A DNA stretch of 32,000 nt from contig CBDCNV010000002.1 of the NCBI GenBank assembly GCA_965219535.1, positions 2,220,001-2,252,000 on the forward strand, written 5' to 3'. This DNA is from Opitutales bacterium. GTDB taxonomy: Bacteria; Verrucomicrobiota; Verrucomicrobiia; Opitutales; PNEW01. The position numbers and the translations under genes were made by a program. Every line of letters starts with the position of its first letter. Position 1 is the first letter of the stretch. The notes beneath the pieces were generated by a model, which saw nothing but the letters and a program-made list of their open reading frames with translations, searched no databases and was not told where the DNA came from. Shown here one piece after another: positions 7,352-24,315 of the stretch.

Positions 7352-9414
7352 ATGTTAAAAGTTTTGGATCTACACACTCTCGGCAACTATCGGATACAGT
7401 TCATCGTACTGATGATTGCGATTACAACTGCATCTATTGGTTGCAGTAGAAACATTGAGACTCCATCAGCAAGCGAAGAGAACGCATCTGAACGATCAGT
7501 CGTTAACACTGAAGGATTCAGTTTTGTTTATAAGGGTCCACGTCCCACAACATATAGTGAAGCTCCAGAATTGGCTAAGCGAGTTGCGAAAGGTGAGTTG
7601 CCTCCGGTGGAAGAGCGTCTGCCGGAAGAACCGTTGATTGTGCCAACCATTGAACGCATCGGTCAGTACGGTGGCACCTGGCGGCGGGGATTCACGGGGC
7701 GCGCGGACGGAAACAACTTCGATCGCTTAATACACGATCATTTGATTTACTATGACCTCGACGGCTATACTTTGGTGCCTCACATCGCGAGTGGATGGGA
7801 GATAAGTGAAGACGGGACTACTTTCACTTTCCATCTTCGTCGAGGCATGAAGTGGTCAGATGGTGCGCCATTCACCGCTGATGATTTCGTTTTCGCTTAC
7901 GAAGACTTGACTTTGAATGAAAATATCAACCCCGTCATTCCCAGCCCGACAAAAGCGGATGGACAAGTGTATAAGGTGGAAAAGATAGATGAGACCACCG
8001 TTCGTATTACCTTTCATAAAGCAAACTATATGTTTACCGAAAATGTTGGCGCATTAGCCATAGGGGGCAATTCACTCGTGAATGGGCTTGTCCACTCTAC
8101 GCTCCCCGGCATTATTTAATGCAGTTTCTTCCGAAGTATACCCCCGAAAGTGATCTGCAAGAGAAATTAAAAGCGGCCGGGGACAAAAATTGGATGCAAC
8201 TCTTTAAACGCATGGCCACACCTCTCGAGAACCGGGATTTGCCGGTGGTCGGGCCATGGAAAATGGTTACTCCAATTACGAGTGATGTATGCACTATGGA
8301 ACGTAATCCCTATTACTTTGCCGTTGATCCAGATGGGAATCAGTTGCCATATATCGATAAGATTGTAAGCCCCTTCGTTGAGAACCTGGAGGTATTCAAT
8401 GCACGCGTCATGGCTGGTGAAGTGGACATGCAGGCTCGACATGTTTTGTTGGATAAGGTTCCTGTCCTCAAAAGGGAAGCAGCAAGAGGTAATTATCGTG
8501 TTCTTATCTGGCCTAATTCAGGTGGATCTGACGCCGCGATTATTTTTAATCAAACTTGGGAGGGAGACCCGGAAATAGAAAAGTGGTTGAGAAACCGTGA
8601 TTTTCGAATTGCGCTCTCTGTTGCCATCGATCGAGAAGAGATTAACGAATCAATTTTTCTGGGCATGGGTCAGCCAAGAGCGTACGTGGCAACACCGGAT
8701 AATCCGTATTATCCCGGTCCTGAATTTGAAAAAAAATATGCAGTCCGCGATCTGGATAAGGCCAATAAAATCCTGGACAAATTAGGCCTCGATAGAAAAG
8801 ACCGTGACGGATACCGTTTGCGGTCTGACAATAAGGAACGTCTTATTATTACTCTCTCCGTCTTGAGGCAGGCGATGTTGAATTTTGAAGGAGTTGCTGA
8901 ACTTCTCACGAACCACTGGAAGGGTGTAGGTATATATACACATTTAAGTGTTGAAGAACGAAGTTATCACAGTAAACGCCATTCAACCAATGAACATCAA
9001 CTTAGCATGTGGACATCAGGTGGAACGGAAAATCCCTGGACTTCTGGTACCCTGACCTGTCCCGTCGGTAGCGCTGGTTTTGCGCCTCTCGTCGGCACCT
9101 GGTATATAACTAACGGGCAAAAAGGTGTGGCGCCCACCGGAGGTCTCAAGCGCTTGCTGGAAATTTTTGAAGAAGGCAATAGTCTCCCCCGTGACATGCG
9201 GACGGAATTGGGTAAAGAATTATGGAGAATCCATGTTAACAACCTCTACATGATTGGCACCGTTGGACAATCACCGGCGATGAACGGCGTTGTCGTGGTA
9301 AAAAATAATTTTCGCAATGTTCCCGACGTCGCGCCCAACAGCGCCGCAATGCAGAACCCGGGTATTGCCCGAACGGAACAATTCTTTTTTGATCGCAGTT
9401 TAAAAAATAACTGA
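7352..9414 (+). pseudogene. Family-5 (peptide/oligosaccharide type) ABC solute-binding lipoprotein, split by a frameshift
   Basis: ORFs 7352..8119 and 8119..9414 together make one SBP_bac_5-like protein. A lipobox-like ASIGC lies near the N-terminus, followed by WSDGAPFTADDFVF. The downstream frame is already open from 8020 and reads ...GQFTREWACPLYAPRHYLMQFLPKY, the typical family motif. The likely shift site is the GGGGG run at 8063..8067. Confidence 0.8.
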
Positions 9415-11792: not shown

Positions 11793-11924
11793 TTGTCATT
11801 GCGAAGGAGGCAAAGCCGACTGCGGCTACCAAGCGCAGCGACATCTTCCATTCCAGGGTGTCGACGATGAGCGTTCGACGTTCCCCTGGATCGCCACGGC
11901 TGACAAGCAGCCTCGCGATGACAA
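11793..11924 (-). repeat. MITE-like element, family A copy 3 (inverted orientation)
   Basis: Termini are TTGTCATTGCGAAGG and CTCGCGATGACAA. The internal AGCGCAGCGACATCTTCCATTCC is the reverse complement of the block in copies 1 and 2. Confidence 0.8.
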
Positions 11925-16811: not shown

Positions 16812-16904
16812 AAAGGGGTGATGTCGATCTTTTTGTGTCTTTCGAGTTAGCACTTCGATCGCTAATTTCTAAATTATAAGCAAAAAGATCGACATCACCC
16901 CTTT
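16812..16904. promoter_or_regulatory. Perfect 24 bp inverted repeat with a 45 bp spacer in the divergent aldolase/deacetylase intergenic region
   Basis: AAAGGGGTGATGTCGATCTTTTTG (16812..16835) is the exact reverse complement of CAAAAAGATCGACATCACCCCTTT (16881..16904). Confidence 0.6.
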
Positions 16905-16924
16905 TGTTTAACCTTCATACAACT

Positions 16925-17686
16925 ATGAATAAAGACCTTCACCCCATCCCCGACGGACTGATTGTTCTTGTATTCGATGATGCCGTAAAATCCCATATTA
17001 CCTTTGTCGCGCCGCTGCTCAAAAGCTACGGCTTTAATGCCACTTTTTATATTTCCGAGGGCTTGGGCTTTCTGAAAAATAAAGAACGCTATATGACTTG
17101 GGAAGAGGTTCGGGAGCTGCATGAAGCGGGTTTTGAAATCGGAAATCATACCGGCCAGCACAAAGCCGTGAGTAAGCAGTCACGTGAGGAATTGATCGCT
17201 GATATCGAGAAGATTGATAGCCGATGCGAAGAATATGGCATTCCCGTCCCTGTAACATTTTGTTATCCTGGAGGACACCATTGCCCGGAGACCGTAGCGG
17301 TTCTCGAAGAGAGACAATTCCTTTTCGCAAAACGAAGTTTTGAGATGGAACCCTCTTGGTCAGAGGATGTTGACGGAAACGGGGGGCTAGGCTCTGCTTA
17401 TGATCCCACACTTCACCCTCCCTTACTCATCCCAACGACCGGAATGTCAGGACCCAACTGGCCATTTGAAGATTTTATCCGTGCGGTAGAGCTGGCCAGG
17501 GATGGGAAAATCACGGTATTTACTTTCCATGGCGTGCCGGATCTGGATCACCACTTTGTAAACACGGATCCGGATAAGTTTAAAACTTATATGGAATACT
17601 TACACGAGCATAACTGTACCGTTATTGCCGTCCGTGATTTGACTAAATTTGTAGACCCTTCGACTGGGCGAATCAGTGAACAGTAA
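16925..17686 (+). CDS. Polysaccharide deacetylase (carbohydrate esterase family 4-like)
   Basis: LVFDDAVKSH (Asp-Asp motif), GNHTGQH (H-x-x-x-H type metal motif) and MTWEEVRELHEAGFEIG. The track ORF starts at TTG 16904 inside the inverted repeat, so ATG 16925 (MNKDLHP) is more plausible. Confidence 0.75.
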   Translation: MNKDLHPIPDGLIVLVFDDAVKSHITFVAPLLKSYGFNATFYISEGLGFLKNKERYMTWEEVRELHEAGFEIGNHTGQHKAVSKQSREELIADIEKIDSRCEEYGIPVPVTFCYPGGHHCPETVAVLEERQFLFAKRSFEMEPSWSEDVDGNGGLGSAYDPTLHPPLLIPTTGMSGPNWPFEDFIRAVELARDGKITVFTFHGVPDLDHHFVNTDPDKFKTYMEYLHEHNCTVIAVRDLTKFVDPSTGRISEQ

Positions 17687-17708
17687 ACGGTAAACAGTGA
17701 ACAGTAAA
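17674..17708 (+). repeat. CAGTGAA-type heptamer array (family D), copy 1
   Basis: Five units: CAGTGAA CAGTAAA CGGTAAA CAGTGAA CAGTAAA. The deacetylase stop codon (17684..17686) lies inside unit 2. Confidence 0.8.
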
Positions 17709-17747: not shown

Positions 17748-17780
17748 TTTTGACTTTTTGACCTTTTGACTTTTTGACTC
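17748..17780 (-). repeat. GTCAAAAG-type octamer array (family C), copy 3 (reverse orientation)
   Basis: The plus strand reads CATTTTGACTTTTTGACCTTTTGACTTTTTGACTCAAT and ends 6 nt before the ATG at 17786. Confidence 0.75.
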
Positions 17781-17785
17781 AATAA

Positions 17786-18604
17786 ATGACTGAAGAACAG
17801 AAGTTCTTTTTTGATCTCCGCGGGTGGATACTATTGCCAGCCGTGTTATCACCAGCCGATATTGATGAGATGAAAAAGGAGGTGTATGATGGCGCGAAGA
17901 ATAGCTATGAAGGGTCACTTCAGAAGCTGCTCGACCATCCGGCCATCGTGGGTATTCTGACCGAGCTTCTCGCGGAGCCCTCTTTTGTTTCGGACGATTA
18001 CTACAGCTTCCGTTGTGAAGGTTCTTTTACGACAGTCCGTCCTTCCGGATGGACTTTAACCGAGAATGCAAAAGTAAAAGGCGGTACCGCTACACCCCAT
18101 GTCGTGCGTCCTCCACAGCAGGCTAACGCCATGCGATACCAGGTAGAAGGAAACAAGATTTTTGCAGGATTGACCCGTGTCGTCTGGGAGCTTGAAGAGG
18201 TGAAGGCGGGACAGGGGGGTACTACTTTTCTCAGCGGATCACACAAAGCGCATTTCAACTATGGAGGACCCGACCCCTATGCGCCCAATGTCAGTGACTC
18301 ACCCTGGGAACAAAGCATTCGTGAGGCGATGGACGAATACAGCTGTCCAGCTGGTTCTGCCATCGTATTCACGGAAAGTCTCTTACATGCAGCCCATGAT
18401 TGGACCAATCCCGATAACCCCCGGTGCGCGGTGTTCAATTGCTACAACTCTCTATGGGCTCAATGGCACCTGCTCAACCTGGACAACGAGATAATAGAAA
18501 AAATGCCGGAAAAACGGCGCACCCTCTTTCGCGGTACCTGGGAATTAGGAGAGTTAAATGGTAGCCGCAATCACAGCTATGCGGAAAATAATAGAAGTCT
18601 TTAA
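17786..18604 (+). CDS. PhyH-like Fe(II)/2OG oxygenase family protein (divergent)
   Basis: 272 aa. It shows a PhyH-type N-terminus (FFFDLRGWILLPAVLSPADIDEM), GGTTFLSGSHK and LLHAAHDW. I could not locate a canonical HxD/E at the expected place; the sequence there reads TPHVVRP. Confidence 0.6.
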   Translation: MTEEQKFFFDLRGWILLPAVLSPADIDEMKKEVYDGAKNSYEGSLQKLLDHPAIVGILTELLAEPSFVSDDYYSFRCEGSFTTVRPSGWTLTENAKVKGGTATPHVVRPPQQANAMRYQVEGNKIFAGLTRVVWELEEVKAGQGGTTFLSGSHKAHFNYGGPDPYAPNVSDSPWEQSIREAMDEYSCPAGSAIVFTESLLHAAHDWTNPDNPRCAVFNCYNSLWAQWHLLNLDNEIIEKMPEKRRTLFRGTWELGELNGSRNHSYAENNRSL

Positions 18605-18630
18605 AACGCGATAGTGTATCAGCGCGTTTT
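18603..18630 (+). terminator. Intrinsic terminator after the 17786..18604 gene
   Basis: AAAACGCG-(12 nt loop)-CGCGTTTT overlaps the stop codon, giving an A-tract/T-tract flanked GC stem. Confidence 0.55.
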
Positions 18631-18721
18631 AGGTTAGAAAAGGTTCACGGTTCAGAGTTGAGTTGAATATTTTTTAAAATAAATATTTTAAATCCCTCCT
18701 ACCTTTGCTTGTAATAAAAAA

Positions 18722-21219: not shown

Positions 21220-21399
21220 ATAGGGCTCTACCTGTAGTGTTTATATACAAAAGCAGGATAAGATTTTCCCTTTACTAACTTAAAATTTTTATTTTTGAGT
21301 ATATCAAATTGATAATTGTACCGAGGACGAAGTCCGACATCTTCCATATCGACATTTGATTGACTCTCCCCTTATTCGAATAAATTAGAAGATTGTGCA

Positions 21400-22233
21400 A
21401 TGAGCATTTTAAGCAAAGATGATCGATCGTTTTGGGACGAGAACGGTTATGTTATCATTCACGACGCCGTTTCTCCAGAAAATATTAAAGCTACCTATGA
21501 TGAAGTTTGGAATTTTTTGGATATGCAACCCGACGACCGGGAGAGCTGGTATCCGGACCCGCCGCGGCTGGGCCTCGGAGTGAAGATGCATCATCACCAG
21601 GTTTTGTGGAACAACCGTCAGCACCCCCGCGTGCACCAGGCCTTTGCGGAAATCTGGGGAACGGAGAAGTTGTGGGTAAGTTTTGACCAGTGCAGCATGA
21701 GCCCCCCGCTCCGCCCGCATTTGAATGACGGCGGGAAATTACACTGGGATACCCCTTTAGAACCACCTATTCCGTTTTGCTGTCAAGGTGTGCTTTACCT
21801 GACAGACACTGAAGCGGATAGGGGAGCGTTCACCTGTGTGCCGGGGTTCCATCAAAAACTCGAAAGCTGGTTGGAGTCCTTGCCACCGGAGGCCGATCCC
21901 CGAAAGCAGGACCTGATGCGCCTCGGGGCCATACCTGTTCCCGGTAAAGCTGGTGACTTCATCATCTGGCACCATTTACTCCCTCATGGGGCAGGTGTGA
22001 ATACGGCGGACCAACCTCGGGTCGTGCAGTACATCTCCATGTTCCCAGCCCAGGAAGTGGATGAAGATTTTGTAAATTACCGCATTGACGCATGGAAAAA
22101 TCGTCTTGCAGGTGGAGGTCATTCCGGCACGAGGGTTGAGTTGGAAAAAGGAAAAGAATATGAAAATGGTCAGACCGCGGAATTGACCCCCTTAGGACGA
22201 AAATTGCTGGGTCTAGATTCTTGGGAGCGCTAA
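21400..22233 (+). CDS. PhyH-family Fe(II)/2OG dioxygenase, group I paralog 1
   Basis: 277 aa. FWDENGYVIIHDAVSPENI N-terminus, LHWD (HxD), CVPGFHQK and LPHGAG (distal His). Confidence 0.82.
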   Translation: MSILSKDDRSFWDENGYVIIHDAVSPENIKATYDEVWNFLDMQPDDRESWYPDPPRLGLGVKMHHHQVLWNNRQHPRVHQAFAEIWGTEKLWVSFDQCSMSPPLRPHLNDGGKLHWDTPLEPPIPFCCQGVLYLTDTEADRGAFTCVPGFHQKLESWLESLPPEADPRKQDLMRLGAIPVPGKAGDFIIWHHLLPHGAGVNTADQPRVVQYISMFPAQEVDEDFVNYRIDAWKNRLAGGGHSGTRVELEKGKEYENGQTAELTPLGRKLLGLDSWER

Positions 22234-22234
22234 T

Positions 22235-22334
22235 GCGCGTCAAAAAGTCAAAAGGTTGATGGCGGGGGAGAATCAGTGAACAGTGTATCGAGTGTATAGC
22301 CCGACATCTTCCACGGTAAACAGTGAACAGTGCT
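22235..22334 (+). repeat. Family C octamers followed by a family D heptamer array interrupted by a 28 bp insert
   Basis: GCGCGTCAAAAAGTCAAAAGG (22235..22255) comes first. Then CAGTGAA CAGTG, an insert at 22286..22313 containing CCGACATCTTCCA, and CGGTAAA CAGTGAA CAGTGCT. Confidence 0.75.
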
Positions 22335-22355: not shown

Positions 22356-23090
22356 GGGTCATGCCTAGAATAGACACATATCAGATGTGTAAGCTATTCT
22401 AGACAAATGAGAAATAAGTATGTACATCGTTCAAAAATTTCTGAGGCCAAATTTCGGCAGTTAGTAAAGTGTTTTAGCTTGGATATGGAAGCGTTGAAGA
22501 TAGCCCAATTGACAGGATTGAATCGTAACACGGTCAACCGTTATTTGCGCTTGTTGCGGGAGCGTTTGTTGCAGCAATGTGCGCAGGCCTCGCCTTTTAG
22601 GGGGTCGGTGGAAATGGATGAGTCCTACTTTGGAGGCAAAAGAATTCCAGGGCAAAGAGGTCGGGGTGCATTCAAGAAAGTGCCCGTCTTCGGGTTGCTC
22701 AAGCGTAATGGGAAAGTCTATACCCAGGTTGTACGCAATGTCTCCAGAGCCGCTCTGCATGCGGTGATCCAAGGGAGAGTTACTTTTGACAGTGTGCTTT
22801 ATTCTGACGGGTGGCGTGCTTACAACGGCCTCGTGGATCTGGGCTATAAGAAGCATTACCGTGTCAATCACAACGACAACGAGTTTGCCCAGGGACACTC
22901 CCACATTAACGGGATTGAATCTTTTTGGGCTTTTGCTAAACTTCGATTGGCTAAGTTCAAAGGTCTTTCTCGTAGGACCTTCCAACTGCACCTCAAAGAA
23001 ACTGAATATCGCTTTAACCATCGTCATCAAAACCTCCATCGTAACATCCTTAATATGTGCTTAAGATACCCTCTGTTCTAGGCATGACCC
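22356..23090 (+). mobile_element. IS1595-family insertion sequence, IS1016 group-like, apparently intact
   Basis: 735 bp. Perfect 15 bp terminal inverted repeats are GGGTCATGCCTAGAA (22356..22370) and TTCTAGGCATGACCC (23076..23090). An 8 bp direct duplication AATTTTAA flanks it (22348..22355 and 23091..23098). It holds a single transposase ORF. Confidence 0.9.
22407..23081 (+). CDS. ISXO2-like (DDE_Tnp_IS1595) transposase
   Basis: 224 aa. VEMDESYFGGKR, LYSDGWRAYNGL and HINGIESFWAFAKLRLAKFKG are typical of IS1016/IS1595 transposases. Confidence 0.9.
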   Translation: MRNKYVHRSKISEAKFRQLVKCFSLDMEALKIAQLTGLNRNTVNRYLRLLRERLLQQCAQASPFRGSVEMDESYFGGKRIPGQRGRGAFKKVPVFGLLKRNGKVYTQVVRNVSRAALHAVIQGRVTFDSVLYSDGWRAYNGLVDLGYKKHYRVNHNDNEFAQGHSHINGIESFWAFAKLRLAKFKGLSRRTFQLHLKETEYRFNHRHQNLHRNILNMCLRYPLF

Positions 23091-24150: not shown

Positions 24151-24174
24151 GAGTCGAAAGTCGAAGGTCAAATG
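24151..24174 (+). repeat. Family C octamer array, copy 5a
   Basis: GAGTCGAAAGTCGAAGGTCAAATG lies directly after the stop codon. Confidence 0.7.
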
Positions 24175-24193
24175 TCTAAAGCGGGGGAAAAGT

Positions 24194-24228
24194 CAGTGAA
24201 CAGTGAACGGTAAACAGTGAACAGTGGG
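24194..24228 (+). repeat. Family D heptamer array, copy 3
   Basis: CAGTGAA CAGTGAA CGGTAAA CAGTGAA CAGTGGG. Confidence 0.8.
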
Positions 24229-24238
24229 GGAGCGCTAG

Positions 24239-24315
24239 CGCGCGTCAAAAAGTCAACAGCCGTCGCCAAGGCTATGGCCGTCAAGAAAGGTCAAAAAGTC
24301 AAAATGTTGAAGATG
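24239..24315 (+). repeat. Family C octamer array, copy 5b (degenerate, with an internal non-repeat stretch)
   Basis: GCGCGTCAAAAAGTCAAC ... GTCAAGAAAGGTCAAAAAGTCAAAATGTTGAAGATG. Confidence 0.65.

Follow-up and report, generated by a model that had tools for sequence, protein, structure and literature searches.

To our knowledge, intergenic repeats built of heptamer units have been described from cyanobacteria since 1990, and later from Beggiatoaceae and Xanthomonas, with no accepted origin or function. In the STRR of heterocystous cyanobacteria (Calothrix PCC 7601), as summarised in PMC4692102, a few defined heptamer words are arranged in tandem at many intergenic loci with a variable number of units. 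[quoted passage not shown] The GGGAATC and GGGGA(C/T)T repeats of Xanthomonas and Nostoc are also intergenic and located near gene ends; among related species their position is conserved, their length and sequence variable (Rehm et al. 2015, PMC4692102). In the 23S IVS of Coxiella burnetii, an S23p four-helix-bundle ORF occupies the loop of a stem formed by inverted ends, and a tandem GACAGAT heptamer, present in two to three strain-variable units, is found just upstream of this ORF (PMC4990558).

The arrays considered here come from an Opitutales MAG (G000; 4.47 Mb, two contigs, about 45% G+C), in which the window, that is the whole analysed stretch of 32,000 nucleotides, corresponds to C2:2220001-2252000. 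It was compared with a sister genome of the same genus (G001) and with a genome of another genus (G003), all three belonging to one family. A preliminary description of the window had reported three CAGTGAA/CGGTAAA arrays, the middle one split by 28 bp, and these were confirmed (Table 1); a 32-nt array pattern matches the window at 17674 and 24194, and none of 100 shuffles gave a match. Upstream of copies 2 and 3, an octamer or AGTCGAA-type array is followed by a GGGGG linker, while at copy 1 a reversed octamer array lies downstream and has three units at the G001 site. The ordered composite that had been proposed from these modules is real in copies 2 and 3 but is not a rule, since among 43 strict arrays in the genome both parts (octamer or AGTCGAA array and G-run) precede only 7, and a G-run 16. 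Similarly, the block at 18643-18663, GGTTCACGGTTCAGAGTTGAG, had been taken for a degenerate related array in reverse; it is present and may fairly be called related, being composed of the sister words GTGAACC/ACCCTGA, one to two substitutions off CAGTGAA, but it is not a reversed CAGTGAA array. The surrounding interval (18605-18721) holds only a short repeat mosaic in G000, including a reversed GGTTCAC array, and in G001 (L139 5525-6802) a gene for a 332-aa alpha/beta-hydrolase-like protein is found there. A long perfect inverted repeat lies at 16812-16904, between the divergent aldolase and CE4 genes, and its weak, sub-threshold Rfam matches are hairpin-like only.

Table 1. Repeat modules, mini-elements and associated genes (window coordinates unless a contig is named)
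Feature	Position	Strand	Remarks
CE4 polysaccharide deacetylase gene (PF01522)	16904..17686	+	TAA stop at 17684-17686
Heptamer array 1	17674..17708	+	CAGTGAA-CAGTAAA-CGGTAAA-CAGTGAA-CAGTAAA = CAGTGAACAGTAAACGGTAAACAGTGAACAGTAAA; overlaps last four CE4 codons and stop
Octamer array GTCAAAAR x4	17748..17779	-	abuts start of next PhyH-like gene and points away from it
Degenerate sister-word array GTGAACC/CTGAACC (GGTTCACGGTTCAGAGTTGAG)	18643..18663	-	inverted; downstream of PhyH-like gene 17786-18604
Intact mini-element GTACCGAGGACGAAGTCCGACATCTTCCA	21318..21346	+	upstream of PhyH gene 21400-22233
Octamer array (GTCAAAAAGTCAAAAGG) and GGCGGGGGAGAAT linker	22239..22273	+	precede array 2
Heptamer array 2	22274..22332	+	CAGTGAA-CAGTG (22274-22285), 28-nt insert, CGGTAAA-CAGTGAA-CAGTG (22314-22332)
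28-nt mini-element TATCGAGTGTATAGCCCGACATCTTCCA (TACCGAG-(hairpin)-GACATCTTCCA)	22286..22313	+	inserted in array 2 after CAGTG of unit 2; stem mutated; G001 site empty
AGTCGAA-type heptamer array and GCGGGGGAAAAGT linker	24152..24193	+	precede array 3
Heptamer array 3	24194..24228	+	CAGTGAA-CAGTGAA-CGGTAAA-CAGTGAA-CAGTGGG; CAGTGAACAGTGAACGGTAAACAGTGAACAGTG at 24194-24226
Next mosaic modules after array 3	24229..24310	+	GAGCGCTAGCGCGCG, then octamer array split by second small element (CCGTCGCCAAGGCTATGGCCG)
CAGTGAA-armed four-helix-bundle gene (PF22296+PF05635)	C2:1168043-1168477		between inverted CAGTGAA arrays, nested inside GGGTTCA and GGTGTCG arrays

The CAGTGAA arrays are a genome-wide class of short intergenic STRR-like tandem repeats. 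The sequence CAGTGAACAGT occurs 187 times in G000 against about 2 expected occurrences, and a regular-expression search for strict CAGTGAA-type arrays of at least three units recovered 43, with 3-16 units each, on both contigs. TRF returned 2,126 rows for G000, reduced to 1,285 non-overlapping arrays with 6-9-nt units (768 intergenic, 98 overlapping ORF ends), in which the commonest units were AAGACG (93), GTCAAAAA (67), GTCAAAAG (55), CAGTGAA (51), ACCCTGA (48) and AGTCGAA (39). The 51 CAGTGAA arrays of this set, again on both contigs, are intergenic in 36 cases, overlap ORF ends in 13 and lie inside crude ORFs in 2. With about 50 arrays in the genome, and others in the two related genomes, the earlier view that the arrays form a family rather than local by-products was borne out by the inventory. 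Among 41 Opitutales genomes, arrays of this word are present in G000, G001 and G003 only, and the exact (CAGTGAA)x4 sequence is common in heterocystous cyanobacteria (records of Brasilonema, Nostoc, Anabaena, Scytonema and Calothrix) and scattered in other phyla. The arrays of G000 are concentrated in hot regions (C2:1100000-1600000 and C1:1100000-1200000), where those with 6-9-nt units make up 8-18% of intergenic DNA, as opposed to 0-3% in most of the genome. The intergenic fraction itself is not unusual in these regions.

Head-to-tail 7-nt units (at least three), many dispersed and mostly intergenic loci and a unit number that varies between relatives place the arrays with STRR-like repeats, while their variable length and lack of terminal inverted repeats set them apart from MITEs and transposons. 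In tandem heptamer structure, intergenic location at many loci, variable unit number and lack of a known function, they resemble the STRR. They differ in that the host belongs to the Opitutales, that octamers and hexamers join them in ordered trains, that their strand bias tracks GC skew and that a four-helix-bundle cassette shares their word.

The G000 genome encodes 14 PF05635 four-helix-bundle proteins, and 10 of these 14 genes have arrays on both sides, compared with 0.8 of 14 for random genes. One of them is flanked by CAGTGAA arrays (Table 1), and the genes of eight homologous proteins (65-82% identity), at 10 loci of other assemblies, all have CAGTGA[A/C/T] arrays on their flanks, for the most part in inverted orientation. 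Among the 41 Opitutales genomes, homologues with 80% identity or more are found only in G000, G001 (three copies) and G003, all with CAGTGAA arms. Other arm words are seen at the other 12 G000 copies and at four-helix-bundle genes of lower identity (47-52%). By these comparisons, the arm word is specific to the protein subfamily, and CAGTGAA is the word of this one. The three genomes that combine the arrays with the cognate gene form one clade, so their co-occurrence counts as a single event. In the G001 orthologue of the CAGTGAA-armed gene (G001:C1:30174-30605), an internal TAA is present, and the two other G001 copies are intact. Like the Coxiella IVS, the G000 cassette consists of a small four-helix-bundle ORF between inverted ends with tandem heptamers (PMC4990558); in contrast, its neighbours on both sides are protein genes rather than rRNA, complete heptamer arrays form its arms, and about 50 arrays without the ORF accompany it.

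The window arrays themselves are not IVS-like cassettes, as no PF05635 gene stands beside any of the three. Most arrays are solo, an inverted partner within 1.5 kb being found for only 5 of 43. The number of arrays per 50-kb bin follows the four-helix-bundle genes only weakly, with the hottest bins devoid of such genes, and the extent to which cassettes cover the top array families does not reach significance (P = 0.115). An HMM built from the 14 G000 proteins detected no four-helix-bundle gene within about 8 kb of 118 foreign loci with at least four perfect CAGTGAA units. This result and the scarcity of inverted partners speak against a simple derivation of the solo arrays, so that their descent from cassettes, or their seeding by them, is presumed rather than read directly from the loci.

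Comparison of orthologous sites reveals both persistence and rapid change. Arrays 2 and 3 lie in paralogous 3' flanks of duplicated PhyH genes, and these flanks are conserved in two genera; at a third PhyH paralogue, the octamer module is present and the heptamer module absent. The site orthologous to array 2 has five uninterrupted units in G001 (CAGTGAA CAGTGAA CGGTAAA CAGTGAA CAGTG) and seven in G003, and the array orthologous to array 3 contains two small inserts in G001 and one in G003. At the 20 G001 loci compared, perfect arrays differ between G000 and G001 in unit number (13 vs 6+3.6, 16 vs 3, 3.5 vs 7.7), and several arrays are present in only one of the two genomes. The substitution identity of the intergenic mosaic is 0.84-0.97 against G001 and about 0.76 against G003, and that of 4-fold sites is 0.85-0.91 against G001 (CE4 and PhyH-1) and 0.82 against G003 (CE4). 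The mosaic diverges at an about neutral rate, close to that of 4-fold sites, and the comparison of intergenic and 4-fold-site identity with G001 and G003 gives no sign of purifying selection on the arrays beyond their position. A gene for an IS1595-family transposase (window 22407-23081) directly follows the array-2 mosaic; its absence from the syntenic G001 region marks it as a recent insertion.

The variant order CAGTGAA-CGGTAAA-CAGTGAA-CAGTGGGG is found again at many G000 loci, which points to a defined sequence being copied and not to slippage starting anew each time. The reading considered best, with a probability of roughly 0.55, is that of an STRR-like class whose word is the cognate arm repeat of one bAvd/S23p subfamily and most of whose copies are solo. 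CAGTGAA would be the arm repeat of four-helix-bundle genes held between inverted arrays as IVS-like hairpin cassettes, while most G000 copies, including the three of the window, are solo arrays without the gene. The arrays may have been seeded by copying of a defined sequence instead of arising in place, and unit number would be altered by replication slippage; some copies have spread along with duplicated gene flanks. They would represent selfish or neutral DNA that selection excludes from coding sequence; stops in all frames would allow an array to sit flush at the 3' end of a gene, and an invaded ORF would gain only a few codons, as may be the case for CE4 and about ten others. The bias towards the G-rich strand would reflect orientation-dependent gain or loss of units during replication. 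Under a simple hairpin model of such slippage, however, the length bias should be the reverse of that seen, and only weak folds are predicted. A far-reaching extension of this reading, in which every heptamer word serves its own bAvd/S23p protein as a recognition or propagation repeat and the approximately 50 solo arrays were seeded in trans in a replication-coupled manner, would explain the G-rich-strand polarity, but is offered as a rather unlikely one.

The arrays may also be read as functional cis-elements that mark gene boundaries and are bound by a regulator or a nucleoid protein, possibly the four-helix-bundle protein itself, acting on DNA or in the untranslated ends of mRNA. The arrays lie at a median distance of 18 nt from stop codons, and 35 of 43 point away from the nearest gene boundary (35:8), regardless of gene direction and independently of G-rich-strand polarity. 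Translational neutrality as the cause of this orientation was rejected, as it fails for the octamers, whose stop-free strand points away. Array 2 is moreover retained at its orthologous site in two genera, and heptamer repeats of Nostoc and Beggiatoaceae have been proposed to affect regulation. The boundary orientation and the retention across genera could each mean function, and both are counted against the best explanation. On the other hand, all four configurations of flanking genes occur, so that CAGUGAA would be in the transcript of some genes and UUCACUG in that of others, and most genes have no array, the arrays being regionally clustered. The about neutral divergence and the frequent gain and loss between congeners also speak against cis-elements, as do the Rfam, promoter and terminator scans, which gave no signal at the arrays. 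A functional cis-element is considered improbable, at about one chance in a handful.

Independent, microsatellite-like slippage at each site, with the recurrence of the word reflecting a 7-nt mutational preference and no link to an element or protein, is regarded as somewhat more doubtful still. Heptameric repeats are over-represented in many bacterial genomes, which has been ascribed to polymerase slippage (PMC4692102), and the strong differences in unit number between G000 and G001 are what such a process would produce. Nevertheless, the single-copy word is neither unusual nor skewed outside arrays (398 vs 362, or 0.52; rank 3,908 of 16,030 heptamers), yet about 50 arrays of that very word exist. 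The fixed position of CGGTAAA inside CAGTGAA at many loci, the occurrence of the word beside homologous four-helix-bundle genes in unrelated assemblies and the regional clustering on C2 also argue against such an independent origin.

The strand polarity of the arrays is pronounced. In 34 of the 43 strict arrays (34:9), CAGTGAA is carried by the G-rich, putatively leading strand; the TRF set yields 41 of 51 (p = 1.5e-5), and all 11 arrays with at least six units have this orientation. The octamer arrays show a similar bias (about 80%), and the mini-hairpin and MITEs show no strand skew. In G001, the arrays are oriented '-' below 0.43 Mb, '+' from 1.09 to 2.85 Mb and '-' above 3.46 Mb, and sampled GC skew over these three stretches is mainly negative, positive and negative, respectively. 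The dnaA gene (G000:C2:2039591-2040076; G001:C1:2598060-2598545) is located in the middle of a positive GC-skew domain, off the skew switch, in both genomes, so the direction of replication is that implied by GC skew only. G-rich linkers were rejected as the cause of the polarity, since arrays without G-runs still give 33:10. As single-stranded DNA, the array strands are predicted to fold weakly, with no advantage over shuffled sequences. The Xanthomonas and Nostoc repeats form G-quadruplexes and have no leading or lagging preference (PMC4692102), whereas CAGTGAA contains no G-runs and is strongly strand-biased.

This polarity in G000, along with the switch of array orientation with the skew domains of G001, is what would be expected of tandemly clustered, replication-polar chromosome signals such as KOPS or Chi. 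Such a role is nonetheless very improbable: unlike a polar motif, the single-copy word is unbiased, most of the chromosome is free of arrays, which cluster in hot regions, and local GC skew around 107 foreign arrays (61 positive, 46 negative) reveals no significant bias. With the arrays masked, the most strand-skewed heptamers are the G-rich AGGGTAG, AGTAGGG, TAGGGGA and GGGTAGG (about 0.70 on the G-rich strand), and these AGGGTAG-type words are candidates for a KOPS-like polar motif of the lineage.

At array 1, the CE4 protein ends in ...VDPSTGRISEQ-TAA, with ATC AGT GAA CAG TAA lying in units 1-2. The statement that the final ...ISEQ and the TAA are encoded by these two units holds for ORF 16904-17686, the whole ...TGRISEQ tail being specified by G-rich linker-like sequence plus the array units. 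The CE4 orthologue of G001 (97% identical) has an identical array and an identical ...GRISEQ* end; that of G003 (90% identical) ends in ...VDPSAANRD*, three residues earlier, and is directly followed by a different heptamer array, and three CE4 paralogues (64-68% identical) have an equivalent end point. All these proteins thus end within three residues of one point and share conserved sequence up to VDPS, so no conserved part of CE4 is missing, and of the replacement or truncation of the native 3' end proposed earlier there remains a replacement of the last 5-6 residues at most. Truncation of CE4 by the repeat is only weakly supported by the alignments, and the overlap is incidental. That a repeat insertion truncated CE4 with functional consequence is highly unlikely, for despite the last codons and stop lying inside the array and the tail differing from the G003 orthologue after ...VDPS(A/T), the Pfam domain occupies residues 17-136, and orthologues and paralogues share the end point to within three residues.

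The contribution of an array to a gene end is not confined to CE4. A forward CAGTGAA array contains TGA or TAA in all three frames within 21 nt, for which reason arrays supply the stop codon of an ORF in 12 of 67 cases (at least two units), giving ...SEQ* or ...SER* tails. The TAACTGA repeats are similar in being intergenic heptamers found across phyla, with stops in all frames and overlaps with ORF ends (PMC4679880). They differ in that most sets lie just upstream of start codons, while CAGTGAA arrays are more often found just after stops, and the TAACTGA paper makes no mention of strand bias or of a four-helix-bundle gene (PMC4679880). In G003, the PhyH orthologue of window 21400-22233 (L140, G003:C7, ~7664-8560) is interrupted by an in-frame TAA (HHH*VLW), and its native stop is gone; the frame reads on through octamer array and linker up to a stop within the heptamer array (...KAKERSVNGER*).

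The arrays also harbour smaller elements. The 28-nt insert of array 2 includes the word CCGACATCTTCCA, and its reported recurrence at 21333-21345 and, in variant form, in family A MITEs was verified in both respects: the second site lies within the complete GTACCGAGGACGAAGTCCGACATCTTCCA element, and variants are found in the GTCATTGCGAGG-type MITE arms at 1707-1740 and 11824-11857. Genome-wide, GACATCTTCC occurs 133 times vs 8.5 expected, nearly always within an element of roughly 28 nt with the structure TACCGAG-hairpin-GACATCTTCCA, the hairpin of which is short and has compensatory variants. ACCCTGA, CAGTGAA, AATCG-type and CCGGAAAG-type arrays and one MITE arm host this element, which within heptamer arrays comes after CNNTG and takes the place of AA. 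In array 2, the site is filled in G000 and empty in G001, which shows insertion or loss since the species split; comparison of the two states yields no clean target duplication for the 28-nt insert. In G001 (L139 11613-11642) and G003 (L140 10741-10770), array 3 is interrupted at CAG|TGAA by another small element of about 30 nt (CCGCCGTCGC..GCTATGGCGTGCCAAGG), and a related copy splits the octamer array at window 24256-24285. Comparison of the loci shows that the arrays serve as insertion sites for mobile mini-elements of roughly 28-30 nt. The TACCGAG-hairpin-GACATCTTCCA insert, though not the arrays, may be likened by description to the SDR of Nostocaceae, small dispersed repeats which reportedly (Elhai et al., 2008) nest inside other repeats: it is likewise tiny, dispersed and nested in repeats.

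Heptamer arrays of this kind are shown here in a Verrucomicrobium. What is new is the G-rich-strand polarity, the orientation away from gene boundaries, the turnover between congeners, the mini-hairpin landing sites and the word shared with bAvd/S23p arms. Three testable handles are provided: a subfamily gene that always comes with a CAGTGAA-type arm word, a strand polarity that follows GC skew, and arrays that serve as landing sites for tiny hairpins. The repeat-supplied stop codon is a simple consequence of the sequence of the word and has a published precedent (PMC4679880). With respect to annotation, ...SEQ* and ...SER* tails, as well as short ORFs running through reversed arrays, are repeat-encoded. 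If the reading of one word per protein were true, the 35-year-old STRR puzzle would gain a protein partner and a mechanism.
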